Assembly (NCBI GenBank): GCA_015232315.1
Contig: JADFZZ010000004.1
Span: forward strand, 83,414 to 115,413
Origin: SAR324 cluster bacterium
GTDB taxonomy: Bacteria > SAR324 > NAC60-12
Length of the DNA: 32,000 nucleotides
Reading direction: 5' to 3'
Shown: one piece after another, positions 80 to 24,338 of the stretch
Layout of the letters: every line of letters begins with the position of its first letter
Numbering within the stretch: the first letter of the stretch is position 1
Notes under the pieces: model-generated
Seen by the model: the letters and a program-made list of their open reading frames with translations, nothing else
The model's database searches: none
What the model was told of the DNA's origin: nothing
Translations under genes and position numbers: made by a program

Positions 80-571
80 ATGTCAAGCTGTTCATTTGAT
101 ATTGTTTGTGAAGTCAACCTTCAGGAACTCGACAATGGGGTCAATCAGGCTAAACGGGAAATTGAAACCCGTTATGATTTTAAAGGCAGTCATTGTGAGA
201 TCGAACTTGATAAGGAAAAATCATCGGTGTTGCTGACAGCGGATGATGACATGAAGATGAAAATGGTGATTGATATTTTATTGACCAAACTCATCAAACG
301 ATCTGTTCCTGTTAAATCCATTGTTTATGGAAAGACTGAGCCTACTGGACGTTTATTGAAAAAAACATTGACCGTTCAGCAGGGACTATCCAAAGAACAG
401 TGTAAAAAAATCACAACGTGTATCAAGGATTCCAAACTCAAAGTGCAGGCACAGGTAATGGGCGAACAAGTTCGGGTTACCGGGAAAAGTAAGGATGATC
501 TTCAGCAAATCATGGGATTGTTGAAAGGAATGGAACTGGATTTTGATCTTCAGTTTACAAATTACAGATAA
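80..571 (+). CDS. yajQ: YajQ-family (UPF0234) nucleotide-binding protein
   Basis: 163-aa ORF with an ATG start. Length and end-to-end pattern fit the YajQ family: N-terminal SFDIV, RYDFKG, and a C-terminal LQFxNxR-type end. Confidence 0.85.
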   Translation: MSSCSFDIVCEVNLQELDNGVNQAKREIETRYDFKGSHCEIELDKEKSSVLLTADDDMKMKMVIDILLTKLIKRSVPVKSIVYGKTEPTGRLLKKTLTVQQGLSKEQCKKITTCIKDSKLKVQAQVMGEQVRVTGKSKDDLQQIMGLLKGMELDFDLQFTNYR

Positions 572-573
572 TT

Positions 574-2379
574 TCAGTTCATTGGCGTCTGAGTGATCTG
601 TTTCACCGCATGGATCAGATCACTTTCCTGTGTGGCTGAGAGCATTAAAAATTCCAATCCGATGGTCCATTTATTGATGTAATCTTTTTTAACGCTGTTT
701 TTCTGCCATATGACTTTGCAAATAATTTGTATGGGATCCAGTTCAATAGCATGACCATCTTTTTCTGGCAAAAATACAATTTCAGCAATTGTGGTTTCCC
801 CCACTGTTAACGGTTCTTCCAACTCCATACGCATTCCAAACCTCGAAATATCCAGAGCGATCCCGGAAATCATGTTTTGCTTCATAAACAAGCGGGCCGG
901 CGTATAGACATCAAACCTTGGCGTGCGTCGTCGTCGTTGTTGGTTGAGATAGTAACTGGTTTCTTCCACAACACCATCCCAGAAATAATCCTCAGGCGGA
1001 TAACGCAAAAAATACCGGCAGCGTTGCAAATATTCACGCGTTATCACATCATCCGGATAAATCGCTTCACATTTTTCAAATAACTTTATGGCGTCTTCAA
1101 AGTGCTGACTTTTGTAGCGAATGATCCCTTCAAATAAAAATGCTTTGGTCTGCTGCTTTTTATCATAAATTTCAGGAGGATCATGATCAAAAACCTCAAA
1201 AATTGTAACAGGTACTCCTTTTCCCCGTATTTTAACCGTATCAATTTCACGAATGGCATAATCATCATCATTGATTTCCGCATGACTGTATCCCGTGATC
1301 AGAATACCGGCTTTGTATTGTTTGGTCAGTTGTTCCAGACGGGCAGAGATATTCACATGATCGCCCACCACGGTTGAATCCATCCTGTTTATGGTACCCA
1401 ATGCGCCGACGACGACAGCACCTGTATTGATTCCCACTCCAAAATGTATAGGTGGAAATTCTTTGGAACGATGTGCATTGTGATGTTGAATGGCTCTGTG
1501 CATTTCTATAGCAGACTGAATAGCTCTGTTGACCGAATTTTCTCTATCAAACAGTGCCATGATCCCATCGCCTATAAACTTGTCAATGAAGCCCCCATGA
1601 TCAGTGATCAACGGTTCCATCATGGTGAGGTATTCATTGAGAAATTCGAAGTTTTTTCGAGGAGTCATTTGTTCTGATATGCGGGTATAGGAGCGAATAT
1701 CAGAAAATAAAATGGTCAAAACTTCTTGATGACAATAACCCGGTGTCAAAAAATCAACGCCTTCCGCATAGATACGCTGGAGAAATTGTTTGGGAACAAA
1801 CACCTGAAACATTTTTGTGGTTTTTTCCTGTTCTAGTCGTGAGGCGATCAATTCACTGTTGGTTTCTTCAAGTTTCTGTTTGGCTGTTTTTAATTCTTCA
1901 GCCGTCCTGATGGCATTATCCGCAATCATGTATTGGATAGAAAGAGCCTCATTCAGTTCCGCTGTTTTAAGAGCGAGATCTCTTCTTTGTTCATATAAAC
2001 TGACAAAAATACGGACTTTGCTTTCCAGAATATAAGGATCAAAGGGTTTAGACAGAAAATCAACGGCGCCATGTTCATAACCTTTGAAGATATAATGATC
2101 TTCACGGAAAATGGCGGTGATGAAAATGATGGGAACATTGCGGGACAGGTCATGCTCCCTGATTCTTGCCGCAATCTCAAAACCATCAAGATCCGGCATT
2201 TGGATATCCAGTAAAACCAATGCCAGATCTTGCTCATGCGCAATCTCTATCGCACGTTTTCCTGAGGATGCGGTATAAATTTGAATGTTGAGAGACTTCA
2301 GGATGGCTTGTGTCAGAAACAGGTTTTCCTCACGATCATCTACAATCAGGATTTGAGGTGCAGGATAATTTTTAGCCAT
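574..2379 (-). CDS. Response-regulator receiver / class III adenylate cyclase / TPR-like / PilZ multidomain protein
   Basis: 601 aa. REC spans aa 9-125 (DD at 13-14, phospho-acceptor D58 in LLDIQMPDLDG, K111 in LSKPF). A coiled-coil linker follows. The cyclase domain spans aa 218-397 (metal Asp D227 in FSDIRSYT and D271 in FIGDGIMALF, K267, T336, N343 and R347 in VGDHVNISARLE). The C-terminal PilZ has RRxxxR (R483-R488) and DxSxxG (D510-G515). Confidence 0.85.
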   Translation of the reverse strand: MAKNYPAPQILIVDDREENLFLTQAILKSLNIQIYTASSGKRAIEIAHEQDLALVLLDIQMPDLDGFEIAARIREHDLSRNVPIIFITAIFREDHYIFKGYEHGAVDFLSKPFDPYILESKVRIFVSLYEQRRDLALKTAELNEALSIQYMIADNAIRTAEELKTAKQKLEETNSELIASRLEQEKTTKMFQVFVPKQFLQRIYAEGVDFLTPGYCHQEVLTILFSDIRSYTRISEQMTPRKNFEFLNEYLTMMEPLITDHGGFIDKFIGDGIMALFDRENSVNRAIQSAIEMHRAIQHHNAHRSKEFPPIHFGVGINTGAVVVGALGTINRMDSTVVGDHVNISARLEQLTKQYKAGILITGYSHAEINDDDYAIREIDTVKIRGKGVPVTIFEVFDHDPPEIYDKKQQTKAFLFEGIIRYKSQHFEDAIKLFEKCEAIYPDDVITREYLQRCRYFLRYPPEDYFWDGVVEETSYYLNQQRRRRTPRFDVYTPARLFMKQNMISGIALDISRFGMRMELEEPLTVGETTIAEIVFLPEKDGHAIELDPIQIICKVIWQKNSVKKDYINKWTIGLEFLMLSATQESDLIHAVKQITQTPMN

Positions 2380-4132: not shown

Positions 4133-4591
4133 ATGTTTCCTTCCCGAATAAGATTTAAAATATTTATTCTGGTATGTGTTATGGGGTTATTCAGTTGCGC
4201 AGGTAAACGTCCGGAAAATCTTGGAGTCAAAGATCAACACTTGGCTCCTTGTCCCAACAAACCCAATTGTGTTTCCAGTCAAAGTCAGGATGACTCGCAT
4301 TTCATCAAGCCGTTGACATATCTTGGCACTGTTGAGGAATCCAGGCAATGGTTGAAAGAAATTATTACATCCAAGCCCAATACAACGCTGATCAAGGAAG
4401 AATCAGATTATTTCTGGTTTGAGTTTAAATCGGCCTTGATGGGATTTGTGGATGATGTGGAATTTTATTTTCCGCAATCGGAACAGATCATTCATGTACG
4501 TTCAGCTTCTCGTCTGGGATATTCGGATATGGGTGCCAATCGTAAAAGGATTGAACTCCTTCGTCAGACCTTCTCGCCGTCAGCTCAATAA
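4133..4591 (+). CDS. DUF1499-family lipoprotein
   Basis: 152 aa. Signal peptide with lipobox LFSC, then the DUF1499-typical LAPCPNKPNCVSSQ motif. A purine-rich AGGCGGGG lies upstream of the ATG. Confidence 0.75.
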   Translation: MFPSRIRFKIFILVCVMGLFSCAGKRPENLGVKDQHLAPCPNKPNCVSSQSQDDSHFIKPLTYLGTVEESRQWLKEIITSKPNTTLIKEESDYFWFEFKSALMGFVDDVEFYFPQSEQIIHVRSASRLGYSDMGANRKRIELLRQTFSPSAQ

Positions 4592-6939
4592 AGATTTCCA
4601 CAAAGCCATACTCCGTATCGGGTACATTCTTGCTGATCCGTCGCGGGGTACAGCATCAATTGATGAGCCGATGAGGCTTCTTTGGATCGTTCGTCAGCCT
4701 GGACTCTGGCTGCATAGAGTGCACCCATGTGTAGTTTGACAATATTTTCAATGTACCCCTGCCTGAAACTCAGTGAAATAGACCCATCCATTCGTTCCTT
4801 TTCCTCTTTATCCAATAGTTGATGGATCCTATTCAAGGACTCTATCCGTCTATTCTCATTTGTCTGAAACGAAAGGCGTGCTTTCTGGAGTTCTCCTGAA
4901 GTCTGAATTTTTTTGCCTGTTCTGGTCCTGGCAAGGTCAGGATTATCCTGAAGCACAGAATATTTTCGCATGGCAACAGTGTATTCTTTATTGCGGTTTG
5001 CCTGACGTGCTTCTTCCATCAAAACAAGGGCCGTTTCTTCAGGGGGGGTTAATTGTGATTCAGTGTTCAGACGAACGCGTTCAAGATCCGACAAATTCTG
5101 ATCAATCGTGTCATATTCATCCGCATAGGGAAACGCTCTTTGAAACTCTACCATCATTGAATATCCACCTCTCATGGCTCTTGCCATAGCAATCTGGTGA
5201 ATCTGTTTTACCGCATCAAGTGCCTCAGGAACATTGGGATATTTTTGCAAAAAATTCAGATATCCCGCAATGATGTTTGCGTTCCTTACTTTCGCATAGA
5301 TATCACTGATCGCTTTGCGGGCATGTGAACTGGCAGGATAAAGGGCCACAAATTTCTCAAATTTTTCAACATCCTTTTCTTTTTCATACAAACTGAGCAG
5401 AAGCCCTGTTGCCAGCGCGGCTTGCGGAGTATACGGGAATTTTTTAATGAAAGTTTCGTATCCTTCTTCTGTGTTTCCGGAGTGGTAAACTTCGAATTGT
5501 CTGTCGATGGCCTGGCTCACATGACGTGATTGGGGATGCCGTTGAATAAACTGATCATAGCCCTCAACGGTGTTCTGAACCTGATACAGTTTTAATATCG
5601 ATTCAATCGCACCACCTGTATGGGATGACAATGGATAGCGTTCAATAAATTCAAGGTATCCATCAATCGAAGGTGTTTCCTCATATTTTTGAAACAGACG
5701 ATCCCTTGCGGTTTCCGCTGTGGATGTCCCGTCAAACAGATCAATAAAATTCTGGTAGGATTCAATCGAATTTTTGAGAGTCGCCTGTTCCAGTTGCTGA
5801 TCAAGAATCATTTGTTGATCCACACCAAGTGATTGAGGACTTTCTTTAATTTGTAAGGCCAGGAGAGGTGCCATTTTTTCCAGGGCCTGTAAAGCAAGCG
5901 GCGAGTTTGGATACTGTTGACGGAATAGTTGATAGCCTTTCAGGGTGTTGGTTTGTATTGCCTCCCTCCAGGTTAAGGATTCCTGGAGTAAAATAGCATC
6001 ATTTATAAAACGACCATAAGGAAACTGAGCCAGATAGGTTTTGACGGCTTGAAGCGTATCAACTCTCAGACTTTCCGCGTATAAAGCTGATTCAAGGTTC
6101 AACCGCATCAAGGCAACATATTTGCCTTCAGGAAAATATTTGAGATAATCCAGCGCATTCCGCATTAATTCATTGCTTTGACTTTCTGACAGGTTGGATG
6201 GTTTTTGAAATGATAAGGATCTGTCAGGAATCCACCCGGACTGATTGTTTGGTAAGGCAAGACGGGTCCATTCCTGCTGGTGAGCAAGAATATCAAATTC
6301 ACCTGCGGCATTGATCGTAGAACCTGTCGGTGAATCATAACCTGGAGATTCATGAACTGTCAGTGGAACGATTTGAATAATTGCAATGTGTTTCATGGCG
6401 ACAGGACCAGGATAAAATAATTCTTCCATTTCCCGCATGGCCTCATTCAAAAATTTCCCTTGAGGAAATTCTTTCAAATACAGGAGATACGGACTCGGTT
6501 TTTTCTGTTCCCTGGCAAACTGAATCAGGATGGTTTCCTTGATTTCATTGACTTCCGCAACATATTTTCCCCGGGGATATTGTTCCAGATATTGATCACA
6601 CACTTCGCGTGTGTGCAGGGTCTGTACCTGTTCAAACAGCCATTGTTCAATCAGGTTCTGAACGTCCTGAACATAGTGTCCCTGAGGAAATTGTTTGAGA
6701 TAACGCTGGTAGGCATCCTTGGTATGCTGGTGTTTGGCTTGTTCAAACCAGGCTTTATCCAGCAGTTGTGAGGCTTCAGAAGAAAATTCGGAATCGGGAT
6801 AGTTTCTGATAAAATCTTCATAAGAAGTTATTGTATTTTGTTGTTTGGCTTTTTCAAAGGCTCCAGACGCTCCGCATCCCACCAGAATGGTAAATGTGAT
6901 GAATATAAGAATGGAGGCCTTTGACACAGAATCTGCCAT
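4585..6939 (-). CDS. Large lipoprotein with about 14 BamD/YbgF-like (TPR-like) repeats and an internal SH3b-like domain
   Basis: ATG at 6939 gives MADSVSKASILIFITFTILVGC (lipobox LVGC); the ORF is open to TTG 6966. It carries recurrent Y-x2-[FY]-[LI]-x2-[FY]-P-x-[GS]-x-[YFH] repeats. A segment HIAII...GWIPDRSLSF resembles bacterial SH3. Confidence 0.8.
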   Translation of the reverse strand: MADSVSKASILIFITFTILVGCGASGAFEKAKQQNTITSYEDFIRNYPDSEFSSEASQLLDKAWFEQAKHQHTKDAYQRYLKQFPQGHYVQDVQNLIEQWLFEQVQTLHTREVCDQYLEQYPRGKYVAEVNEIKETILIQFAREQKKPSPYLLYLKEFPQGKFLNEAMREMEELFYPGPVAMKHIAIIQIVPLTVHESPGYDSPTGSTINAAGEFDILAHQQEWTRLALPNNQSGWIPDRSLSFQKPSNLSESQSNELMRNALDYLKYFPEGKYVALMRLNLESALYAESLRVDTLQAVKTYLAQFPYGRFINDAILLQESLTWREAIQTNTLKGYQLFRQQYPNSPLALQALEKMAPLLALQIKESPQSLGVDQQMILDQQLEQATLKNSIESYQNFIDLFDGTSTAETARDRLFQKYEETPSIDGYLEFIERYPLSSHTGGAIESILKLYQVQNTVEGYDQFIQRHPQSRHVSQAIDRQFEVYHSGNTEEGYETFIKKFPYTPQAALATGLLLSLYEKEKDVEKFEKFVALYPASSHARKAISDIYAKVRNANIIAGYLNFLQKYPNVPEALDAVKQIHQIAMARAMRGGYSMMVEFQRAFPYADEYDTIDQNLSDLERVRLNTESQLTPPEETALVLMEEARQANRNKEYTVAMRKYSVLQDNPDLARTRTGKKIQTSGELQKARLSFQTNENRRIESLNRIHQLLDKEEKERMDGSISLSFRQGYIENIVKLHMGALYAARVQADERSKEASSAHQLMLYPATDQQECTRYGVWLCGNLY

Positions 6940-7057
6940 TTTAAAACCGTTACACACCAGGAACAATTAAATAATTAATATGAACTTTTGAAAGGTGCCC
7001 TGAATTTTAATGAAAGTGTTTGATGAAAATTTGCCTAAAAATGGATGTCCTGAAACA

Positions 7058-8065
7058 TTATGATTGAGTAAAATCAATCAACTGTTCCAGCTTTTTCATC
7101 GCCATGCCATTTTCCACGAGTTCTTTTGCCTGGGCGATACCCTCTTTCAATGTTGCGGTTTTTTCAGCAACATACAATGCCGCCGCGGCATTTAATATTG
7201 CGACATCTTTGGCAGTACCCAGATATTTTCCTGAAAGGATCTGGCGAATCATTTGAGCGCTTTCGTCGGCACTGTTGACACTCAATTCTTTCAGCGATCC
7301 TTTTTTCATTCCAAGATCTTCCGGAGTCAAACTATAGGTTTTGACCAGTCCATTTCTGAGTTCTGCGACATAGGTTTTGCTGGTTGTTGTTAATTCGCAT
7401 AGTCCATCCTCTCCTGTCACCACCATCGCGTTTCGGCTTCCAAGTCGCTGAAGTGCCTGGGCTAGCTTGTGAGTCCACTCCACAGAGGGAACCCCCAAAA
7501 CCTGGTCCATGGCTCCTGCTGGATTGGTAAGAGGTCCCAGAATGTTGAAAATGGTAGGTATTCCCAGTTCTTTTCGGATAGGTCCCGCAAATTTCATGGC
7601 CGGGTGATGTTTTATCGCATAACAGAAACAAATATTGGTTTGGGCAAGGCACTGTTCCACTTTTGGCAAATCAATATTGATATTCACCCCCAGTGCTTCC
7701 AGCGCTTCAGCACTGCCACTTTTGCGGGTATTGCTCCGGTTTCCGTGTTTTGCGACAACCGCACCGCCAGCCGCGGCAATAATCGCGGCGCAGGTGGATA
7801 TGTTGAACGTGCTGATTCCGTTTCCACCAGTACTACAGGTATCTACGGCATTAGCGGGGGCCTGAATGTGTGCGGACTTTTGACGCATCGCTGTTGCCGC
7901 TCCGGCAATTTCTTCTACATTTGCGCCTTTAGCTTGCAGGAGCGCTAAAAAGGCCCCCGCCTTGATTGGTGTTGCGTCTTCACTCATGATCCACTGGATC
8001 GCTTGATGCGATTCATCAAATGTTAAATCCTGCAATTTCAATAATTTTTGCAACAATTCATTCAT
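7058..8065 (-). CDS. trpD: Anthranilate phosphoribosyltransferase-like protein (glycosyltransferase family 3)
   Basis: Contains TGGNGISTFNIST, VAKHGNRSNTRKSGSAEALEALG and FNILGPLTNPA. ATG 8065 is preceded by GAAAGGA; the ORF is open to GTG 8104. About 335 aa, which fits TrpD. Confidence 0.75.
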   Translation of the reverse strand: MNELLQKLLKLQDLTFDESHQAIQWIMSEDATPIKAGAFLALLQAKGANVEEIAGAATAMRQKSAHIQAPANAVDTCSTGGNGISTFNISTCAAIIAAAGGAVVAKHGNRSNTRKSGSAEALEALGVNINIDLPKVEQCLAQTNICFCYAIKHHPAMKFAGPIRKELGIPTIFNILGPLTNPAGAMDQVLGVPSVEWTHKLAQALQRLGSRNAMVVTGEDGLCELTTTSKTYVAELRNGLVKTYSLTPEDLGMKKGSLKELSVNSADESAQMIRQILSGKYLGTAKDVAILNAAAALYVAEKTATLKEGIAQAKELVENGMAMKKLEQLIDFTQS

Positions 8066-8103
8066 TATTTCAGTCCTTTCTCTCTCAGGGTGTGGCTGAC
8101 TCA

Positions 8104-9378
8104 CTATTCATAAAATTTGAAATTTTTCAGTTTTTTCTTTCGTGAGCGGTCTTTCCGGGCAACGGTTCCCAAACCTTTATATTTGACATAGAGCAACAAT
8201 CGATCCAACAAATCATGCTCTTTTGTGGATAAATCCATGAACTTCAGACCATAAACCCATTGTTTATTCTGTTTTTTTCTGGTCATGATCCGTCCCCCCA
8301 GGGTCAGTGGACTGGATAGTGCTTCAGATTCAATGTTGACCCACGCCCAGGTTTTGGGTTTAATTTTGAAATGGGTCAGCAATCCCACCCCTCCCACAGA
8401 CATATCCACCAGAATGCCTTCAAAATTATCATTCAGGGTATGTCCGGAAACTGGAATATTGCAGGAATGACGTGGAGCAAATCGTTGTTCCAGGAATAGT
8501 TTACGAAAAAATATTGCATGGCTAAGCAACAATCTGGCGGATTCCTGATGAGAAATAGCGTAATTGAAATTGACCAGAAGATGATCGCCCATATGAAGAC
8601 GTGTGTCCAGTCTCACGGGAAGTCGAACAGGCCCGCTTAAGGAAGGATGGACAAAATCAACAATGGTCATTTGCTTTAGATCAACCCACTTTTCCCAGGA
8701 GCCTGTTTTGATACGTGCTTCAAAAGATAAAATACTCACATGCTCAACTGTTCCATCTACAAAAAGAATACTTTCTTCGTCTGACAACCGGCAAGTCAGG
8801 CCCGAAATAAAATTATGGATGACCCCCTGAAGATGAACATCCACCAACATGGTGCTTAGCGAATAGCGAGTGTCGGTGTTGATGGTTCCGAGATAAATAT
8901 GATAACCCAATAATGGAAGATACAACACCGCAAACAGTCCATGCAGGGCAATCAACACGCTTTTAAGTCCCGGCAAATCATGCGGACGTAAAAAATAAAG
9001 GGTGATTCCCGTAATGGACATCAGTGTAATCACGACCACTGACAAGAGTAGGAACAGCCATTGTTTCACGATCATTTTATCTGAAACGATACTTTCGCCA
9101 CCTTTACCAGTGGGATTCTGCAACACAATCAGGCTCAAAATTCCGGAACCGGTCATCCAGAAAATTCCAATGGTGATATGCCACCATCGGGTATCCCGAG
9201 CTAAAAAATCTCCCACATGGCGTAGTTCAACGATTTGAGAAATCCCCAGAGTATACAGTAACAGAATCATGGTCGCATTGAACCAGTGCAACCATCGTAT
9301 ACGGGGAGCGAATCGTGAAATGATGACAGTATCCTCAGGTGCTAACAGTTCCAGTCCGATACTTGCGGCATTTGTCAT
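8104..9378 (-). CDS. Di-heme cytochrome b (FdnI/Ni-hydrogenase b-type-like, 4 TM) fused to a C-terminal PilZ c-di-GMP-binding module
   Basis: 424 aa. There are four predicted TM helices with His at 31 (RWLHWFN), 67 (WWHITIG), 146 and 160 (LHGLFA...GYHIYLG), matching the His pattern of PF01292-type cytochromes. The C-terminus has RxxxR (R299-R303) and DxSxxG (D325-G330). AAGGA SD lies 7 nt before the ATG. Confidence 0.8.
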   Translation of the reverse strand: MTNAASIGLELLAPEDTVIISRFAPRIRWLHWFNATMILLLYTLGISQIVELRHVGDFLARDTRWWHITIGIFWMTGSGILSLIVLQNPTGKGGESIVSDKMIVKQWLFLLLSVVVITLMSITGITLYFLRPHDLPGLKSVLIALHGLFAVLYLPLLGYHIYLGTINTDTRYSLSTMLVDVHLQGVIHNFISGLTCRLSDEESILFVDGTVEHVSILSFEARIKTGSWEKWVDLKQMTIVDFVHPSLSGPVRLPVRLDTRLHMGDHLLVNFNYAISHQESARLLLSHAIFFRKLFLEQRFAPRHSCNIPVSGHTLNDNFEGILVDMSVGGVGLLTHFKIKPKTWAWVNIESEALSSPLTLGGRIMTRKKQNKQWVYGLKFMDLSTKEHDLLDRLLLYVKYKGLGTVARKDRSRKKKLKNFKFYE

Positions 9379-9399
9379 GAAGGTCCTTGGAAAATATGG

Positions 9400-9960
9400 C
9401 TACAGATATTCGCCTGTGGCAACATTGTAATATTTTGAATATTCTTTACCGGTTTTGACATGACAGTCCACACACCGGACATCAGTATTATCCCGTTTCA
9501 TATCAAAATCGCCCTCATCCATCAATTGGTGTGCGTAACGGACATCAGCCTTGCTGTGATTATGACAACTAATACATTGAACTTTTCGATACGTGGTCCG
9601 GTTGGTGATATCTTGGTGGCATTCCTTGCACTTCAACGTGAAATGATATTTTTTTCCTTCGAGCACCAGAACTTTACTGTGATATAAGGCCGCAGTGGAT
9701 TGTTTCCATCCAAAAAAACTGGGTTGATGGCACAAATTACAGGTTCCCAAATCATTATGGGCTTCCGGACGATTGGTATGGCAACTGTCACAACGGCGCT
9801 GAATGCCGTAAATATTCAGTTTCAGGTCGCCCAACAATCCGCGCCCATGCCCAAACAGTCCAACGTCAAAAAATTGCTCATAGGGCGTTTCTCTTACGCG
9901 GGGATCAGTGCATGAAATGAGCAAAAAGCAGATTCCAATTATTCCAGTGATACGAAGCAT
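9400..9960 (-). CDS. Pentaheme c-type cytochrome, probable lipoprotein
   Basis: Five CxxCH motifs (CDSCH, CNLCH, CKECH, CISCH, CVDCH) in about 170 mature residues. Start at ATG 9960 gives MLRITGIIGICFLLISC, a lipobox-type signal. The ORF is open to ATG 10056, so the start is uncertain. Confidence 0.8.
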   Translation of the reverse strand: MLRITGIIGICFLLISCTDPRVRETPYEQFFDVGLFGHGRGLLGDLKLNIYGIQRRCDSCHTNRPEAHNDLGTCNLCHQPSFFGWKQSTAALYHSKVLVLEGKKYHFTLKCKECHQDITNRTTYRKVQCISCHNHSKADVRYAHQLMDEGDFDMKRDNTDVRCVDCHVKTGKEYSKYYNVATGEYL

Positions 9961-10015
9961 CAGGGGGTTTATATGAAGCAGATTACAAATTGAGAAGGCA
10001 ATGCCACAGTTTGAC

Positions 10016-10378
10016 TCAGGATTCTTCAACTTCCTGTTCCTCATCAGAATGTACATGATCCAGGACGGTAATCAAAATCAGGGAAAACAGTGCTCCTGAT
10101 ACAAAGCCTTGTCGAACAGGCCACCAATCGTGGACAAGAAACAGGTCCGATAACGCCAGAAACACAGGGACTAATCCAATTGCCACATACACCGCATTAG
10201 GGTTGCTTATTCGAACCTTGAACCGGATAAACCGGATCAAAAATGGAATGACAACGCCCCAAACAATGCCATATCCCCAGTCTGTGTTAAATCCTCCGGG
10301 AGACGGGATGCTGAAGATTAATAGAATCAGACAGGTCAGGTTGTAAGACGAAATATGAAATTTACCAATGGGAATCAT
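10016..10378 (-). CDS. Small integral membrane protein, unknown function
   Basis: 120 aa with 3-4 hydrophobic helices and an acidic tail (SDEEQEVEES). GAGGTG lies just upstream of the ATG. It is the first gene of the cytochrome cluster on the same strand. Confidence 0.55.
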   Translation of the reverse strand: MIPIGKFHISSYNLTCLILLIFSIPSPGGFNTDWGYGIVWGVVIPFLIRFIRFKVRISNPNAVYVAIGLVPVFLALSDLFLVHDWWPVRQGFVSGALFSLILITVLDHVHSDEEQEVEES

Positions 10379-10472: not shown

Positions 10473-10820
10473 CTATGATTCCTGGATATCGCTCAAATAA
10501 TAGCGCCACGCCGGAGCATGTTGCTCAATGTGGTGGATCAGTTTTTCAGATATTTCACGTAACAATGCGACCTGATCATCAGGATCCGGCAGATTGTAGG
10601 GTTGTATTCGTATCTGGATAGCTCCTCCAGCGGGTGTTTCTTGATTTTGTGTAACTTTAAGGAGTAATTCCTCTGGTTGAACAATATAATAGCAGGGGTG
10701 AGAATCGATGCTCTGTCCTGTTTGAACAGGTTTTCCAGATGTGGACAGCACCTCAACCAAAAATTCAAACACTTTCCGGGAAGAATCTGAATTGTCTAAA
10801 TATAAATCCCTAAACTTCAT
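10473..10820 (-). CDS. Hypothetical protein, translationally coupled to kdsB
   Basis: 115-aa ORF whose ATG overlaps the kdsB stop (ATGA, 10817-10820). Soluble-looking composition; no family recognised. Confidence 0.6.
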   Translation of the reverse strand: MKFRDLYLDNSDSSRKVFEFLVEVLSTSGKPVQTGQSIDSHPCYYIVQPEELLLKVTQNQETPAGGAIQIRIQPYNLPDPDDQVALLREISEKLIHHIEQHAPAWRYYLSDIQES

Positions 10821-11572
10821 GCTGGAGTTTCCTTTGTCTTGTGGGAGTTGTTCATTAAAAAACGCTCCACTTTAAGGATGTCGTCTGGATGATCCACACC
10901 AATCCCCTCAAATTTTGCGGGAACGCACAAAATCGGGTATCCACGTTCCAATATTCTTAGTTGTTCCAGTGATTCAGTGCTTTCCAGTTGAGTTTGAGGC
11001 CATTTACTGAATGCCAGCAGAAAATCTTTCCGGTAAAAATATATACCAAGATGTTTCCACATGGATTGCGGAGGGTGCCGGGGATAAGGAATTGCGGCTC
11101 TGGAAAAATACAAGGCATGGTTGTTCTGATTTAAAACAACCTTGACTACATTCGGATTATTAAAGTGTGTCTCCTCTGTGATCGGGAAAATCAAGGTTGA
11201 TATTGGACACTCACCTGTCCCCATTGTGGTTTCTACCAGGTTATTCAAATCATCTGGAGAAATGACCGGTTCGTCCCCCTGAACATTCAAGATCCATTCG
11301 CAGGATAGATGTTGTGCGGCTTCAGCCAGACGATCCGTTCCCGTAGAGTGATCGGGGCTGGTCATGATGACTTCTCCGCCAAAATCTTTTACAACCCGGG
11401 CAATTCGCTCATCATCCGTGGCAACCATCACCTTTTCAATTCCTGATTGTGTGACCTGTTGATATACACGCTGGATCATTGGCAGGCCCATGATCTTCAC
11501 CAGGGGTTTTCCGGGAAATCGTGTAGATGCGTAGCGAGCTGGAATAATGGCGACAACCTTATGAAATGTCAT
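10817..11572 (-). CDS. kdsB: 3-deoxy-manno-octulosonate cytidylyltransferase (CMP-KDO synthetase)
   Basis: 251 aa with N-terminal AIIPARYASTRFPGKPL and IxGxPMIQRVY, plus NVQGDEP and the expected length. Confidence 0.9.
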   Translation of the reverse strand: MTFHKVVAIIPARYASTRFPGKPLVKIMGLPMIQRVYQQVTQSGIEKVMVATDDERIARVVKDFGGEVIMTSPDHSTGTDRLAEAAQHLSCEWILNVQGDEPVISPDDLNNLVETTMGTGECPISTLIFPITEETHFNNPNVVKVVLNQNNHALYFSRAAIPYPRHPPQSMWKHLGIYFYRKDFLLAFSKWPQTQLESTESLEQLRILERGYPILCVPAKFEGIGVDHPDDILKVERFLMNNSHKTKETPA

Positions 11573-12063: not shown

Positions 12064-13095
12064 ATGATAAAAAAAATCGCAATTACCTCAATGGCTGCTT
12101 TTTTGAGTCTGTCTGTGGCAAATGCTAAATGTCTGGACCAACAGGAAACCAAATTATGTTTGGGTGGTGAAGTAGCCGGCGCATTACAAATCAGTTCCAG
12201 TGATAATGGCACAACATCATCATCTCATATTGCTACTCCTGGAAGAGCTGAGTTGACTGCGAATATTGTGTTACCAGAAAACAATGGCTGGCAAACAGAA
12301 GCCTATTATACCATTAGCTCTGACTCTAATGAAAAGCTGGATGACTATCGGATCAAGGTTTCTTCCGGTAATGTGTCAATTCTGGCTGGACGAGATGGCA
12401 TTGGCTACGTCAAACAAGGACAAAACTATGTGACAGAAATGGGATCAACCACTGTCGGAACCTATGGTGATGGAACGCTGCTCAATGATAACAATCTGGC
12501 GCTGGAATATAGAGTCAATGAGAATTTCGCAATGCGTGGTGGCTTGAGTTATGAGGCCTATGAAGCCGTTGCGGCACAGGCCGAAGTCCTCGATAGTACG
12601 ACGGGTGCCGTGATCACTCCGGCTCAGGATGCTATAAATGCTGATGCCATGGCCTTGGCGCTGGTGGCTGAAGCTAACGTTGCCGGCTTGGGATTTGGAC
12701 TTGAATTTGAAACCAAATCTTATGGCGAACCTGCGGATGCTCCAACAGGGTTTACCGCACCTGATGGGCAAACCACATTGACTGTTGGTCTGCAATATAC
12801 AATTGCTGACAAGTACACTCCCTACCTGAACTATGGATCTTTCACACAGAATGCTGATGTGACTGAAACAGGAATTGATTTTGGTGTTGACGCCAATCTG
12901 GATGTGGTCGGACTGACCGTTGGTATGGAAAATTATGACAGTGGAATTGATGGTGCTGACACAACAAGCAGCATATACCTGGGCGTGATCGCTGGTGTGT
13001 TTGGTGATACACAGGTTGGATTTCAATATCAAACCAGCACTACGGGTGATATTTCATCCAGTGAAACAATGGTTGAGTTATATAGCACATTCTAA
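12064..13095 (+). CDS. Outer-membrane beta-barrel / porin-like protein
   Basis: 343 aa. The signal peptide ends in ANA|K. The sequence shows alternating amphipathic strands rich in G/Y/T/D and a C-terminal ...ELYSTF with terminal Phe (OMP signature). AAGGA SD is present. Confidence 0.7.
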   Translation: MIKKIAITSMAAFLSLSVANAKCLDQQETKLCLGGEVAGALQISSSDNGTTSSSHIATPGRAELTANIVLPENNGWQTEAYYTISSDSNEKLDDYRIKVSSGNVSILAGRDGIGYVKQGQNYVTEMGSTTVGTYGDGTLLNDNNLALEYRVNENFAMRGGLSYEAYEAVAAQAEVLDSTTGAVITPAQDAINADAMALALVAEANVAGLGFGLEFETKSYGEPADAPTGFTAPDGQTTLTVGLQYTIADKYTPYLNYGSFTQNADVTETGIDFGVDANLDVVGLTVGMENYDSGIDGADTTSSIYLGVIAGVFGDTQVGFQYQTSTTGDISSSETMVELYSTF

Positions 13096-16065: not shown

Positions 16066-16893
16066 ATGGCTCCGAGGTATCTGGTTCCAATAGATTTTTC
16101 ACCGGTATCTGTCGATGTTGTACGGTTTGCGGACCAATGGGCTGTTCAGACAAAGGCTGAAATTTGGATCCTGCATGTCAGTCAGGCAACTTATACGTAT
16201 TATCCTGACCGGAAACAAAATGGTGAACTCCTTCCACAATCTGTGGATGATTTGAAATTGAAGGACTGGGTCGCAGCCCTCGATCTCAAGTCTCCTGTGC
16301 AGTGTTTTCATAAAACGGGGCTACCCTATTATGAGATTCTTCAGGCCTCCAGGCAGAAAGATGTGGCCTCCATCATTATGGCTGCCCATTCTCATGCCAT
16401 GAGGGATCGTCTGTTTCTTGGAAGTAACACGGATCATGTTCTGCATCATGCAACCTGCCCGGTGTTTGTTTACAAGAAAAACGGGCAGGTGTTTTCCGAG
16501 AATATTATTGTGCCGGTGGATTATCATGAAATCAACGCGCAAGTGATTCATTTTGCGGATCAATGGTGCCAAATCAATGGTGGAACGCTTAATTTCATTC
16601 ATGTGATCCGGAATGGAGAAGGCAAGGAGGTCGCAGACATGAATTTCTTTGAGCAGAAGCTGTTTGGATTTCTTGATGGTTTCAAGATCCAGTCTTCCTA
16701 TGAAGCTGTCATTCGTGTAGGAAAACCCTATTTGGAAATTTTGGCACTTCAGGAACAGATAAATGCCTGCTGGATCATGTTGGCGGCTCATTCCCACACC
16801 CAATTAGACCGCCTGTTGATGGGAAGCACTACAGATTATCTGGCTCATAACGCAAAATGCCCCGTTTATATTTTTAAACAGTCAACCAGTTGA
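16066..16893 (+). CDS. Universal stress protein, tandem UspA domains
   Basis: 275 aa made of two USP halves. Each half ends with the family motif (MAAHSHAMRDRLFLGSNTDHVLHHATCPVFVYK and LAAHSHTQLDRLLMGSTTDYLAHNAKCPVYIFK). Confidence 0.85.
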   Translation: MAPRYLVPIDFSPVSVDVVRFADQWAVQTKAEIWILHVSQATYTYYPDRKQNGELLPQSVDDLKLKDWVAALDLKSPVQCFHKTGLPYYEILQASRQKDVASIIMAAHSHAMRDRLFLGSNTDHVLHHATCPVFVYKKNGQVFSENIIVPVDYHEINAQVIHFADQWCQINGGTLNFIHVIRNGEGKEVADMNFFEQKLFGFLDGFKIQSSYEAVIRVGKPYLEILALQEQINACWIMLAAHSHTQLDRLLMGSTTDYLAHNAKCPVYIFKQSTS

Positions 16894-16933: not shown

Positions 16934-19027
16934 ATGGCTTTATTTACTAAAATCAGCCCCTTGGCTCATGCGCCGTCAGGCATGACGCATGAGGGGCGGC
17001 AACTGGTGTTCAGTCTCTATGTGAAAGATGCTGAAAAGATTGAGTATCTGTTTTATCCCAACCCCTATCAAATGAAAATGGGGCAGCAATACTCCCGTCT
17101 GGAATGTGTAGAGTTGAACCTGAAAACATTCAGCGTTGGCAATCTTTGGAATTGGAAAGGGGAGTTGACCGCTGACTTTGACGAAAATTATGTGTTTGGC
17201 GTTGTCATCCGTATTTGGAAAATCGATCCTCAAACCGGAAAAGCCATTCCACATCTGGTCATTGACCCCTATTCCAGAGAAACCTCGGGTGGAGAACAAT
17301 GGCGACAATCAGAAGGCTTTGAAATTGATGCTAAAACGCTGAAGATTAAAAGAATTCCAAGAACATCTGTTCACGACCCATATGTGATCAGACGTTTGCC
17401 TGTATTACGCTATTATCACTACAATGTGGATCGACCTGCTCACCCACGAATACCGTTATCAGAATCCATTATTTATGAATGCCATGTCAGAGGTTTTACA
17501 AACAGTCCAACTTCAAGGGTTTCTGATCCAAAATATCGTGGCACCTATAAAGGTTTGACCGAGTGTATTCCCTATTTTCTGGAATTGGGAGTTACAACCA
17601 TTGAACTTCTGCCGATCTATGATTTTGATGAAAATGAAAACGTCAATGTTTCGCCCTTCACACGAGAACCGTTGATCAATTATTGGGGCTATTCACCGTT
17701 ATTGTTTCTGGCGCCCAAACAAAGCTATGCCTATAACATGGAGGATCCCATCTCCGAATTCAAGGAAATGATTGACGCCTTTCATGAGGCTGGCCTGGAA
17801 GTGATTCTGGATGTGGTTTACAACCATACCGCAGAACAGGGATCCGATGGTCCTATCGATCATTTTCGCTGGCTGGATGAGGAAACCTACTACATTTATC
17901 ACAAAACAAATCTGGCTAATTATTCAGGTTGCGGAAATACCCTGAATTGTTCGCATCCTGTGGTGAAACGACTGATTTTGCAAAGCCTTCGTTATTGGGT
18001 GAATGAAATCGGGGTTGATGGTTTCAGGTTTGATCTGGCTTCTATCTTGGATAGAAATCATGAAGGTCAGATGAATGCGTTCCCGTATCTCCTGTGGGAA
18101 ATTAAAAATGACCCGGCACTGTCGGCAGGCATCAAGGTCATTGCCGAACCCTGGGATAGTGGCGGGGGCTATCAACTCGGGCACATTGCCTATCATGCCT
18201 GCTGGGCAGAATGGAATGATCGTTTTCGTAATACGGTTCGAAAAGCTGTAAAGGGTGAGGATGGTATGATCTGGGGCATCATGAACAGTCTTGCCGGAAG
18301 TCCTGATGTTTATCAGTCGATTCAGAACGGACGTGATTTCAGCATCAATTTTCTCACGGCGCATGATGGTATGACCATGTGGGATCTTGTGTCCTACAAC
18401 CACAAGCATAATGAGGAAAATGGAGAAGAAAACCGTGATGGTACCAATGATAACTTTTCCTACAATTGCGGAATAGAGGGTCCAACGAAAGATATGGCCA
18501 TCAATAACCTCCGTTGGAAAAAAATGCGGATGATGCATTTAATGCTACAAATTTCAAATGGAACTCCCATGTTGCTTGGAGGCGATGAACTGGCACGCAC
18601 GCAGTTGGGAAACAACAATCTCTATTGCATTGATTCCCCCTTGAATTGGGTAGATTGGCGATTGGTGCAGAAAAATGTCCATTTGTTGCGCTTTGTCAAG
18701 CAGGCCATTGCCATCAGAAAACAATATCGGGATTTATTGTTTTCCACTGAAAGTCATTATTCCTGGTTTAACTCCGAAGGTGGTGAAGCGGATTATAGTT
18801 CTTATATTCGCACACTGGTCTGGCATATTTCACATCCCAGTCATCCTAAAAAAGCCATGTGCGTTTTGCTTAATTTTTTTCATGGTGCCATTGATTTCAA
18901 ATTTCCGGAGAGTGGACAGTGGTTTTGTGTCATGGATACAAAACAGGATTCAAATGTCATGGGCCGGATTATGAATAATATTGTCAAGGTTGCCGGTTTT
19001 TCAATACAGATTTACCGGCGTGTATGA
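16934..19027 (+). CDS. glgX: Glycogen debranching enzyme (isoamylase-type, GH13)
   Basis: 697 aa with YECHVRGFT, DVVYNHT, GVDGFRFDLASIL, AEPWD and FLTAHDGMTMWDLVSYNHKHNEENGEENRDG. Confidence 0.92.
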   Translation: MALFTKISPLAHAPSGMTHEGRQLVFSLYVKDAEKIEYLFYPNPYQMKMGQQYSRLECVELNLKTFSVGNLWNWKGELTADFDENYVFGVVIRIWKIDPQTGKAIPHLVIDPYSRETSGGEQWRQSEGFEIDAKTLKIKRIPRTSVHDPYVIRRLPVLRYYHYNVDRPAHPRIPLSESIIYECHVRGFTNSPTSRVSDPKYRGTYKGLTECIPYFLELGVTTIELLPIYDFDENENVNVSPFTREPLINYWGYSPLLFLAPKQSYAYNMEDPISEFKEMIDAFHEAGLEVILDVVYNHTAEQGSDGPIDHFRWLDEETYYIYHKTNLANYSGCGNTLNCSHPVVKRLILQSLRYWVNEIGVDGFRFDLASILDRNHEGQMNAFPYLLWEIKNDPALSAGIKVIAEPWDSGGGYQLGHIAYHACWAEWNDRFRNTVRKAVKGEDGMIWGIMNSLAGSPDVYQSIQNGRDFSINFLTAHDGMTMWDLVSYNHKHNEENGEENRDGTNDNFSYNCGIEGPTKDMAINNLRWKKMRMMHLMLQISNGTPMLLGGDELARTQLGNNNLYCIDSPLNWVDWRLVQKNVHLLRFVKQAIAIRKQYRDLLFSTESHYSWFNSEGGEADYSSYIRTLVWHISHPSHPKKAMCVLLNFFHGAIDFKFPESGQWFCVMDTKQDSNVMGRIMNNIVKVAGFSIQIYRRV

Positions 19028-19086
19028 GTTATGAACGGACCTTTGTCCTAACAGGAGTCCATCCTATAACATGAAAGGAAACTGAG

Positions 19087-20310
19087 ATGAATGTACTGAG
19101 CATGATACTGGCGGGAGGAGAGGGAACCCGGTTGTATCCACTAACGATTGACAGAGCCAAACCGTCCGTCCCTATTGGCGGAAATTACCGGATTATTGAT
19201 TTTGTGTTGAATAATTTCATGAATTCCGGAGTTCTGAAAATGTATGTACTGACCCAGTTCAAATCGCACTCACTGATGCGCCATTTACGACTGGGATGGA
19301 GAATTTCCGGTTTGACCCGCACATTCATTGACCCCATTCCCGCCCAGATGCAGACCGGAAAGAAATGGTATGAGGGCACGGCAGACGCTATTTATCAGAA
19401 TATCAACCTGATCAAGGATGAAGACCCTGAACTGGTGTGTATCTTTGGCGGCGATCACATCTACAAGATGGATATACAGCAAATGATCAAATTCCATCAA
19501 AAGAAAAACGCTGTGATGACTGTTGCGGCGATCCCGGTGCCAATACGTGATGCCCATCATTTCGGCGTGATTGAGGTTGATGACGATTGGAAAATGATCG
19601 GCTTTCAGGAAAAACCCAAAGAAAATCCCAAAACCATTCCGGGTGACCCTGACCATGTGCTGGCTTCCATGGGAAATTATGTGTTCAATACCAAAGAGTT
19701 GGTGGAAGAATTGATGGAAGACGCACAAAATGTTGATTCTGACCATGATTTTGGTAAAAATATCATTCCGCACCTATATCCACAGGGCGGCGTTTATGTT
19801 TATAACTTTCTGGAAAATGATATTCCGGGCATCAGTGAAAAGGAAAGAGGGTATTGGCGTGATGTAGGAACCATTGATGCTTATTGGGAAGCCAACATGG
19901 ATTTTATTCAGGTTGACCCCGTTTTTAATCTGTATAATCATAAGTGGCCACTGAATACATACAACCCTCCTTATCCTCCAGCAAAATTTGTGCATTTCAG
20001 CGAGATACGAACAGGACATGCTATCAATTCCATGGTGGCAACTGGAACCATCATCAGCGGCGCGATGGTCGAACAGTGCGTCATCAGTTATAATGTCAGA
20101 ATTCATAGTTTCTGTCATGTCAGTCAGTCGGTGATCATGGATAATGTGCAGATCGGCAGAGGCGCTCAGATTCAACGAGCTATTATTGACAAAGATACAA
20201 TCATCGCACCTGGTACGAGAATCGGTTACGATCTTGAAGCTGACCGAAAGCGGTTTCATGTCTCGCCCAATGGCATTGTTGTTATTCCCAAAGGAGTTCG
20301 CGTTGAGTAA
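19087..20310 (+). CDS. glgC: Glucose-1-phosphate adenylyltransferase
   Basis: 407 aa with ILAGGEGTRLYPLTxxRAKPxVPIGGNYRIIDFxLNNxxNSG and a C-terminal left-handed beta-helix-like region. Confidence 0.92.
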   Translation: MNVLSMILAGGEGTRLYPLTIDRAKPSVPIGGNYRIIDFVLNNFMNSGVLKMYVLTQFKSHSLMRHLRLGWRISGLTRTFIDPIPAQMQTGKKWYEGTADAIYQNINLIKDEDPELVCIFGGDHIYKMDIQQMIKFHQKKNAVMTVAAIPVPIRDAHHFGVIEVDDDWKMIGFQEKPKENPKTIPGDPDHVLASMGNYVFNTKELVEELMEDAQNVDSDHDFGKNIIPHLYPQGGVYVYNFLENDIPGISEKERGYWRDVGTIDAYWEANMDFIQVDPVFNLYNHKWPLNTYNPPYPPAKFVHFSEIRTGHAINSMVATGTIISGAMVEQCVISYNVRIHSFCHVSQSVIMDNVQIGRGAQIQRAIIDKDTIIAPGTRIGYDLEADRKRFHVSPNGIVVIPKGVRVE

Positions 20311-21781: not shown

Positions 21782-21968
21782 AACGGCTTCATTACCCCCT
21801 TGCCAGTTTTAACTTGTTATTTTGCTCTGCAAAGCCAATACAAAGCCATTCCTGAGCCTGTCTAGCAGAACAGGCTCTATCCAGCAACAGAATCAGTTCC
21901 TTCTTGATTAACGCATAGTTTCTCTTTCCATATTTCACATAAACTCATTTCCTTACAAGGTAGCGGTT

Positions 21969-24185: not shown

Positions 24186-24338
24186 GTGATTGAAGTGAAA
24201 TAATTGATAATTTGAAAATTATTTCTTTGCTTCCCGAATTTATTTTGCTAAGGGAAATTCAGGACAACTAACACAGATGGATCCATGTGAGGTCCATTGA
24301 CCTTATTCCCAAGTGTATAAAACAGTTTGAGGAGGACA

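Follow-up and report, generated by a model that had tools for sequence, protein, structure and literature searches.

A predicted di-haem cytochrome b fused to a tandem of PilZ-type barrels and encoded with a pentahaem cytochrome c in a SAR324 cluster bacterium

The window analyzed here is a stretch of 32,000 nucleotides from a metagenome-assembled genome (MAG) of a SAR324 cluster bacterium (GCA_015232315.1, contig JADFZZ010000004.1, positions 83,414 to 115,413). On its minus strand lies a gene for a 424-aa protein that NCBI labels only as 'PilZ domain-containing protein', and directly upstream of it a gene for a pentahaem c-type cytochrome lipoprotein. The 424-aa protein combines a predicted di-haem cytochrome b domain in the membrane with a predicted cytoplasmic tandem of two barrels, an 'xPilZ' barrel and a canonical PilZ domain with the motifs of receptors for cyclic diguanosine monophosphate (c-di-GMP). 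This structural annotation, covering domains, ligands and topology, is made with high confidence. The function that we favor for the protein, c-di-GMP-regulated electron transfer between the quinone pool and the periplasm, is given a probability of roughly one in two. In minus-strand order, the pentahaem and fusion genes and the parts of the fusion protein are:

9400-9960, minus strand: pentahaem c-type cytochrome lipoprotein, 186 aa from M33 (longest open reading frame (ORF), 218 aa, reaches 10056; weak Pfam c3/c7 matches)
9379-9399, minus strand: intergenic spacer of 21 nt with the AAGGA ribosome-binding site of the fusion gene (read from sequence)
8104-9378, minus strand: cytochrome b-xPilZ-PilZ fusion gene, 424 aa (ORF; PF01292 and PF07238; AlphaFold2 (AF2) model)
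8839-9312, minus strand: predicted di-haem cytochrome b domain, aa 23-180 (Pfam, hhalign to FdnI, conservation, inside-positive lysine and arginine)
8554-8838, minus strand: predicted xPilZ (PilZN-like) beta-barrel, aa 181-275, lacking c-di-GMP motifs and holding the invariant H244 (AF2, Foldseek)
8491-8553, minus strand: two-helix linker, aa 276-296 (QESARLLLSHAIFFRKLFL), leading into RxxxR (AF2 helices 277-285 and 288-296)
8176-8490, minus strand: canonical PilZ domain, aa 297-401, a six-strand barrel with a C-terminal helix (Pfam, Foldseek, motif conservation)

Results

The N-terminal half is related to the cytochrome b subunit FdnI

Residues 23-178 of the fusion protein matched Ni_hydr_CYTB (PF01292) with 31.7 bits against a gathering cut-off of 30.1 (E 1.6e-7), and the match spanned positions 2-177 of the 179 in the profile. 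In the AF2 model this half forms four transmembrane (TM) helices (25-53, 64-87, 100-129 and 136-165), which are followed by an amphipathic helix (168-178). Histidines at positions 31, 67, 146 and 160 are the putative haem ligands, and a CxxCH motif is absent from the fusion protein. A preliminary description of the locus had already placed these four residues at the positions of bis-His ligands. This assignment was borne out when the family profile was aligned to Escherichia coli FdnI with hhalign, which covered the entire FdnI membrane domain (147 columns, E 6.9e-5) and paired the following residues:

H31: FdnI H18
H67: FdnI H57
H146: FdnI H155
H160: FdnI H169
Q106: FdnI Q113
Y162: FdnI Y171

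Hidden Markov model alignments to FdnI and HyaC concurred with hhalign, and in the latter H31 and H67 fell on HyaC H22 and H63. In FdnI (structure 1KQF), H18, H57, H155 and H169 are reportedly the ligands of haems bP and bC, and Q113 and H169 reportedly line the menaquinone pocket on the cytoplasmic side. Q106, H160 and Y162 are named here as putative quinone-site residues beside the cytoplasmic haem.

The likeness extends to the general layout of the FdnI/HydC/HyaC proteins (PF01292; FdnI is the gamma subunit of formate dehydrogenase-N, chain C of 1KQF). Four TM helices are present, of which TM1 and TM2 contribute one His each and TM4 contributes two, 14 residues apart; a Gln opens TM3, TM4 contains HxY and an amphipathic helix follows it. 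Sequence similarity to FdnI is marginal (~16% identity). When the model of the N-terminal half was compared with 350,542 chains using Foldseek, the top match was FdnI (1kqf_C), at weak scores (probability 0.96, TM-score 0.56, E 0.26). A sequence search of the PDB with the family profile returned weak PilZ matches alone and no cytochrome b. Unlike FdnI, the fusion protein carries a 245-aa cytoplasmic xPilZ-PilZ extension, and its partner is a lipoprotein pentahaem cytochrome c instead of an Fe-S/Mo or Ni-Fe enzyme with a TM anchor of its own.

Lysine and arginine were counted by segment and are abundant in the N-terminus, in loop 2 and in the segment after TM4, while they are nearly absent from loops 1 and 3. 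Because this distribution is inside-positive, it supports, together with the AF2 helices, an N-in/C-in topology in which the PilZ tandem is cytoplasmic, as had been proposed for the PilZ half.

The C-terminal half is a tandem of a motif-less barrel and a canonical PilZ domain

Pfam PilZ (PF07238) was matched by residues 297-395 with 51.7 bits (cut-off 22.5, E 1.2e-13), so both families expected in the preliminary description exceeded their curated cut-offs. The PilZ signature it had read from the sequence was confirmed residue by residue: R299-F-A-P-R303 is followed 22 residues later by D325-M-S327-V-G-G330. The second PilZ motif is defined as [D/N]hSxxG (Galperin and Chou, bioRxiv 10.1101/814665) and is satisfied by DMSVGG.

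An AF2 model of the fusion protein was built from the family alignment (mean predicted local distance difference test (pLDDT) 75.6, predicted template modelling score (pTM) 0.57). It contains barrel strands between residues 181 and 273 at a pLDDT of ~90, a second barrel at 304-380 and a capping helix at 385-401. A short N-terminal strand (17-20), located just ahead of H31, is modelled alongside the strand 181-184 that opens the xPilZ barrel. In a Foldseek comparison with the PDB, residues ~180-400 matched the two-domain protein PlzA (7mie, E 2e-7) and also PlzD/VCA0042, MotI, YcgR and MrkH over ~230 columns; E values for c-di-GMP-bound two-domain receptors ranged from 2e-7 to 1e-5. The last barrel by itself matched the PilZ domains of Alg44, BcsA, MapZ and YcgR with target-normalised TM-scores of 0.65-0.74.

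The ~100 residues ahead of the PilZ domain had been suggested to form a barrel like the N-terminal domain of YcgR. Barrel and YcgR-like fold were both recovered in the model, but the PF07317 match named there as possible was absent, as the middle barrel matched neither PilZN (PF07317) nor PilZNR (PF12945) in Pfam even at E values up to 10. The homologous region of another family member (locus L001) gave a weak Pfam PilZ match (E 0.019). As modelled, the middle domain is another 'xPilZ' variant in the sense of bioRxiv 10.1101/814665, recognized by fold alone.

With YcgR, PlzD (VCA0042), MotI, PlzA and MrkH the tandem shares the order of its domains, a barrel without motifs ahead of a canonical PilZ domain, and the position of RxxxR in the linker between them. 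Those receptors are soluble proteins whose targets are the flagellar motor or DNA, whereas the tandem described here is covalently attached to a membrane cytochrome. Two features belong to the fusion family alone: H244, which is invariant, and the two-helix linker (aa 276-296), with nearly no variation at L284, L285, L294, F295 and L296. Fusion of PilZ to a membrane machine is known from the cellulose synthase BcsA and from Alg44 (barrel TM-scores ~0.67-0.74, target-normalised), which set the precedent for control of a fused catalytic or transport module by c-di-GMP. Their output is polysaccharide synthesis or secretion, whereas here it would be redox chemistry, and the extra xPilZ barrel is a further difference.

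The fusion family is very rare and its key residues are conserved

An exhaustive HMMER scan of 1.84 billion representative proteins (E <= 1e-3) gave 15 matches, comprising six full-length fusions with 31-43% identity, four fragments and a remainder that was weak and confined to the PilZ end. Relatives of the cytochrome b half were full-length or truncated members of the family (one without PilZ), and none was found outside the fusion family in this protein set. Because only fusion-family relatives were found, the cytochrome b and PilZ halves have co-evolved. Word-index homologue searches gave two matches with the single sequence and three with a profile among the 8000 candidates sharing most words. 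PF01292 and PF07238 were both precomputed for each full-length homologue found.

Relatives gathered by the HMMER search and by locus scans with contig look-ups amounted to 25 loci with a member of the fusion family, the window and two PilZ-less loci included. They represent 19 distinct sequences and ~11 lineages at <85% identity, and three fragment representatives raise this to ~14 lineages. Those with a named source come from SAR324 MAGs, from Bermanella spp. or from an uncultured Saccharospirillaceae bacterium, and the others are untyped contigs. Judged from these sequences, the fusion family is old, very rare and obligate.

Conservation was tabulated over 20-22 distinct sequences with identities as low as ~28-30%:

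H31, H67, H146, H160, Q106, K101, K105, R22, R28, W32, N34, Y162: invariant (20/20 for the four His)
H244: invariant, 22/22
R299: 20/21
R303: 21/21
D/N325: 19/20
S327: 15/20
G330: 20/20

Since the Pfam cut-offs are passed and the histidines, RxxxR and G330 are conserved at 28-30% identity, the two-domain architecture is not a product of chance.

A natural variant lacks the PilZ domain

A 324-aa variant (P0006), consisting of cytochrome b, xPilZ and linker, was found on three contigs, including one of GCA_028281495.1. Two loci were located:

L026, 6001-7336: PilZ-less variant
L027, 860-2195: PilZ-less variant

The variant stops just past the conserved FFRKLFL of the linker, and the next 360 nt are non-coding, with a PilZ remnant in no frame. 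Genes for the pentahaem protein, a class II cytochrome, a small secreted protein and an outer-membrane barrel are all kept at its locus. With all partners retained, the electron-transfer core can persist in the absence of the PilZ barrel, which is consistent with PilZ as a regulatory addition to that core.

The pentahaem cytochrome is the conserved partner of the fusion gene

The preliminary description had noted a lipobox-bearing cytochrome with five CxxCH motifs 21 nt upstream of the fusion ATG, with AAGGA in between, and each of these details was confirmed from the sequence. The CxxCH motifs start at residues 89, 106, 143, 161 and 195 of the 218-aa ORF; the lipobox is LLISC. Translation probably starts at M33, and the resulting length of 186 aa agrees with that of the NCBI protein P0017. 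Across the pentahaem family the five CxxCH motifs, six further His and the lipobox Cys are invariant. With ~190 aa, five CxxCH and a presumed role as periplasmic electron relay the protein resembles NrfB, from which it differs in being a lipoprotein and in having a b-type rather than an NrfCD-type partner. Scores against the NCBIfam NrfB models were far under the cut-offs (TIGR03146, 16.6 against 166.6 bits; NF008659, 15.2 against 184). Among solved structures the best matches were weak and were cytochrome c3 and a multihaem selenoprotein.

Whether the pair co-occurs in other genomes had been raised as a question, and the answer is affirmative: in 22 of 23 judgeable loci the pentahaem gene lies directly upstream of the fusion gene on the same strand with a gap of 3-172 nt. 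The linked loci cover ~10 lineages at <85% identity from SAR324 and Gammaproteobacteria. At the remaining locus (L004) a solitary fliM takes the place of the pentahaem gene; this fliM is full-length (PF02154 and FliMN_C) and lies directly upstream of the gene for homologue P0005 (both within 6903-9242). The adjacency is a hint that the fusion protein of this lineage may be connected with the flagellar switch. In 'Deltaproteobacteria bacterium TL4' (L009, 5944-12555) the place expected of a fusion gene, after the pentahaem gene, is taken by a type I restriction-modification island (HsdM, HsdS-like, DUF1016).

The preliminary description did not name three partners that most lineages have: an outer-membrane porin, a class II cytochrome c and a small protein that is secreted. 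At the gammaproteobacterial loci and at L005 and L026, the genes alongside the module code for a four-helix cytochrome c of class II (PF01322), an outer-membrane beta-barrel and a secreted ~115-aa protein, which has two Cys and a conserved ECPxDNxPxF motif. On the short contig of L003 the class II cytochrome c is the one extra partner visible. The SAR324 window has neither the class II cytochrome c nor the ~115-aa secreted protein.

The barrel is of the Porin_4 type in the gammaproteobacterial loci, and Porin_4 genes were recorded at L002, L006, L007, L013-L016, L018-L023 and L025. At L005 and L026 it is a ~374-aa protein without a Pfam family. Outer-membrane barrels of ~340-375 aa with an aromatic C-terminus lie at 12064-13095 (plus strand) of the window, at 2698-3819 of L005 and at 8413-9537 of L026. 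The barrels next to the module form at least three groups without detectable mutual similarity, and their position relative to it varies. The window barrel is the following gene, 1.7 kb off:

12064-13095, plus strand: 343-aa protein with signal peptide and C-terminus YSTF; probable outer-membrane beta-barrel and possible counterpart of the module porins elsewhere

It had no significant Pfam match, and the profile of the porins at the other loci matched it only in part and without significance (6.6 bits); it is probably an outer-membrane beta-barrel and possibly the module counterpart. A porin-cytochrome conduit across the outer membrane was considered and is unlikely, the neighboring porins being ordinary barrels of Porin_4 size (~340 aa).

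The class II cytochromes c (L001 426-926, L002 2069-2560, L005 1788-2279 and equivalents) have an invariant Met in YRxxFMxxK near the N-terminus, at a position where cytochromes c' carry the distal Leu or Phe. By sequence they may therefore be low-spin His/Met carriers of the c556 kind and not cytochromes c' that bind nitric oxide. This neighbor is no evidence for a function related to nitric oxide, given the invariant Met at the distal position and the absence of the gene from the window.

In the divergent promoter region between the genes for the secreted protein and the pentahaem cytochrome, a conserved motif, TTAGCTTAGGCG...ACGCTTATGCGCAA, was observed together with a TATAGT box (L002 2964-3154, L006 5813-6000, L021 2500-2690, L015 7180-7353 and L016 7089-7400). 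FNR/CRP-like or sigma-54 sites were not found in the divergent promoter regions of the related loci.

Gene order and other genes of the window

The pentahaem and fusion genes belong to a longer run on the minus strand, which in addition contains:

10817-11572, minus strand: kdsB, upstream end of the gene run
10473-10820, minus strand: 115-aa ORF between kdsB and the 120-aa ORF
10016-10378, minus strand: 120-aa hydrophobic ORF (ORF call; third-position bias against the sister MAG locus L017; no family match; no homologue at non-SAR324 loci)
from 8065 or 8104, minus strand: trpD, downstream of the fusion gene

Gene order is identical in a sister MAG (GCA_015231535.1, L017). Comparison of the fusion gene in the two MAGs shows 11 nucleotide differences and a single changed amino acid. 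Ten of the differences are synonymous and lie at third codon positions; selection on the gene is strongly purifying. In the 120-aa ORF seven of nine differences fall on third codon positions. This bias makes both look truly coding.

The 120-aa ORF is the small membrane protein that had been noted ahead of the cytochrome. It is present, looks coding and is probably co-transcribed with the module, but it is not a conserved member of it, as it is restricted to SAR324: no homologue occurred in any of the collected loci outside SAR324, and no Pfam or NCBIfam family was matched. The 120-aa and 115-aa ORFs were both rejected as parts of the module, being present only in the two SAR324 MAGs. A c-di-GMP or other riboswitch was looked for near the operon and none was found, and promoter and terminator scans gave background level only.

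Further genes of the window include two with a relation to nucleotide signaling. In the 601-aa protein encoded at 574-2379 (minus strand), a receiver domain of the response-regulator type occurs together with a class III adenylate/guanylate cyclase (PF00211) and with a PilZ domain whose motifs are canonical (RRTPR ... DISRFG); from its sequence, the protein is a possible point of cross-talk from c-di-GMP to cAMP/cGMP in the same genome. At 80-571 (plus strand) a DUF520 (YajQ-family) protein is encoded, and members of this family reportedly bind c-di-GMP in Xanthomonas. A complete glycogen metabolism cluster with an alpha-amylase-family enzyme, GlgC, GlgA, GlgB and glycogen phosphorylase occupies 16934-26843 (plus strand), and a tandem-USP protein is located upstream of it (16066-16893). 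A 793-aa lipoprotein-like repeat protein with weak YfiO/TPR matches (4585-6966, minus strand) adjoins a DUF1499 gene. The sister MAG has the same repeat protein next to the same gene, and a DUF1499 gene is present on the L004 contig too.

Discussion

From the domain identities, the conservation of ligands and motifs, the predicted topology and the gene linkage we infer a system in which haem and c-di-GMP would be bound, quinone would react, and electron flow would have a direction and be gated. The fusion protein would be the membrane subunit of a two-gene electron conduit between quinone pool and periplasm, a split and smaller analogue of CbcL. Its FdnI/HydC-type half would hold two b haems, a periplasmic one (H67/H146) and a cytoplasmic one (H31/H160), the latter beside a putative FdnI-like quinone site (Q106, H160, Y162). 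The periplasmic b haem would exchange electrons with the lipid-anchored pentahaem cytochrome c. In most of the other lineages the chain would continue to the class II monohaem cytochrome c, with the secreted protein and the porin encoded alongside.

Such a pairing has well described relatives. Coupling of a HydC/FdnI-like cytochrome b to a multihaem cytochrome c is an established design of quinol oxidases and quinone reductases, and in CbcL, MtoC and MtrH a di-haem b domain of this type is joined to multihaem c domains in proteins thought to work in both directions (PMC6295460). By that description they share with the present system a di-haem b membrane domain and a periplasmic multihaem c part that link the quinone pool to carriers. 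Comparison with CbcL-type modules, which the preliminary description had drawn, is therefore apt, whereas its parallel with CymA is a poor one, CymA being a c-type protein of the NapC/NirT kind. CbcL differs in being one polypeptide with 3-23 CxxCH N-terminal to ~6 TM helices, while here the c and b genes are separate and the b protein has four. Unlike CbcL, the fusion protein bears a c-di-GMP receptor, and an MtrAB or Pcc-type outer-membrane conduit is not nearby.

On the cytoplasmic side, the xPilZ-PilZ tandem would pack against the two elements flanking the cytoplasmic haem, namely the amphipathic helix and the N-terminal strand. Binding of c-di-GMP to the RxxxR / [D/N]hSxxG site at the linker would re-pack the two barrels, as in YcgR/PlzA-type receptors and on the model of BcsA. 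This would alter quinone access or the haem environment, and electron flow would rise or fall with the c-di-GMP level. Mechanical coupling of the sensor to the cytoplasmic haem/quinone site is suggested because the tandem starts right after the amphipathic helix following H160, because the strand ahead of H31 pairs with the first xPilZ strand in the model, and because the linker bearing RxxxR is the most conserved cytoplasmic segment. That c-di-GMP allosterically opens or closes this site, and so switches a branch from quinone pool to periplasm at the protein level, is a tentative proposal that we regard as plausible but somewhat short of probable.

Several observations weigh against c-di-GMP-regulated electron transfer. 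The PF01292 match barely exceeds its cut-off (31.7 against 30.1 bits), the fold match to FdnI 1kqf_C is not significant (E 0.26, TM-score 0.56) and the inter-domain geometry of the AF2 model is uncertain (pTM 0.57). Five of 20 members have Cys, Ala or Gly instead of the motif Ser, and one has Ser instead of the D/N residue of [D/N]hSxxG. One lineage does without PilZ, so that c-di-GMP control is not indispensable, and one of the 23 judgeable loci has fliM where the pentahaem gene is expected. Finally, YcgR-type tandems usually act through protein-protein contacts and not on a fused domain.

Information could as well flow the other way, from the haem redox state to the PilZ module. In a redox-sensing effector, a cytochrome b poised by the quinone pool or by the pentahaem protein would alter, through its redox state, the binding of c-di-GMP or of a partner such as the flagellar switch or stator to the tandem, which would act as a membrane-anchored, redox-tuned brake or adaptor of the YcgR type. 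The C-terminal half is structurally of the YcgR/PlzA/MotI type, whose members work by protein contacts (bioRxiv 10.1101/814665), and the L004 fusion gene, which has no pentahaem neighbor, is directly downstream of a solitary full-length fliM. We consider this unlikely. The adjacency to fliM concerns a single lineage, the neighbors in all other lineages are periplasmic cytochromes and a porin and not motility genes, and retention of the electron-transfer neighborhood by the PilZ-less variant points to the redox chain, and not PilZ output, as the core function.

The same variant, which lost PilZ and kept the partner genes, and the variable motif Ser (5 of 20 members) could also be taken to mean that the conduit works while xPilZ-PilZ serves only structure, oligomerisation or localisation and c-di-GMP is without effect. 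The conservation of RxxxR (20-21 of 21), D/N (19 of 20) and G330 (20 of 20) at ~30% overall identity makes this improbable; it is typical of binding-competent PilZ domains (bioRxiv 10.1101/814665), and the motif of the window protein is fully canonical. A role independent of quinone was given slightly less credit still. Here the b domain would shuttle electrons, in the manner of MsrQ or CybB, between a cytoplasmic partner docked on xPilZ-PilZ and the periplasmic cytochromes. PF01292 does include members other than classical quinol dehydrogenases, among them CybB of E. coli, whose annotation is superoxide oxidase, and the quinone site is deduced from two aligned residues only. FdnI is nevertheless the closer profile match (in hhalign, 147 columns at E 6.9e-5 for FdnI and 36 columns at E 0.018 for CybB) and the top fold match, and its quinone-pocket residues correspond to the invariant Q106, H160 and Y162.

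Full-text literature searches found no paper describing a cytochrome b-PilZ protein, in line with the preliminary description, whose author was not aware of a characterized example. The census of PilZ architectures (bioRxiv 10.1101/814665) makes no mention of cytochromes, haem or such transmembrane fusions, and nothing relevant on a link between cycP and cytochrome b appeared in the literature searched. All parts belong to known families, and the combination is a variation on the theme of PilZ-regulated membrane machines rather than something categorically new.

Among the processes controlled by c-di-GMP are motility, adhesion, transcription and polysaccharide synthesis. Its ties to respiration and to extracellular electron transfer are, according to reviews, so far only indirect, for example via biofilm formation or gene expression in Geobacter and Shewanella. 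The reach of the present system is limited by its rarity, with ~14 lineages among metagenome- or genome-derived SAR324, Oceanospirillales-type bacteria (Bermanella, Saccharospirillaceae) and untyped contigs. It is at the same time compact, with a two-gene core, a natural PilZ-less control and lineages related to culturable bacteria (Bermanella). If c-di-GMP-regulated electron transfer holds true, the fusion protein would connect the choice between sessile and motile life directly, at the post-translational level, to electron flow. The principle of BcsA and Alg44, in which PilZ gates the membrane machine to which it is fused, would then apply to redox enzymes too, and c-di-GMP would, as far as the literature searched shows, be the first nucleotide second messenger to act directly on a respiratory-chain cytochrome.

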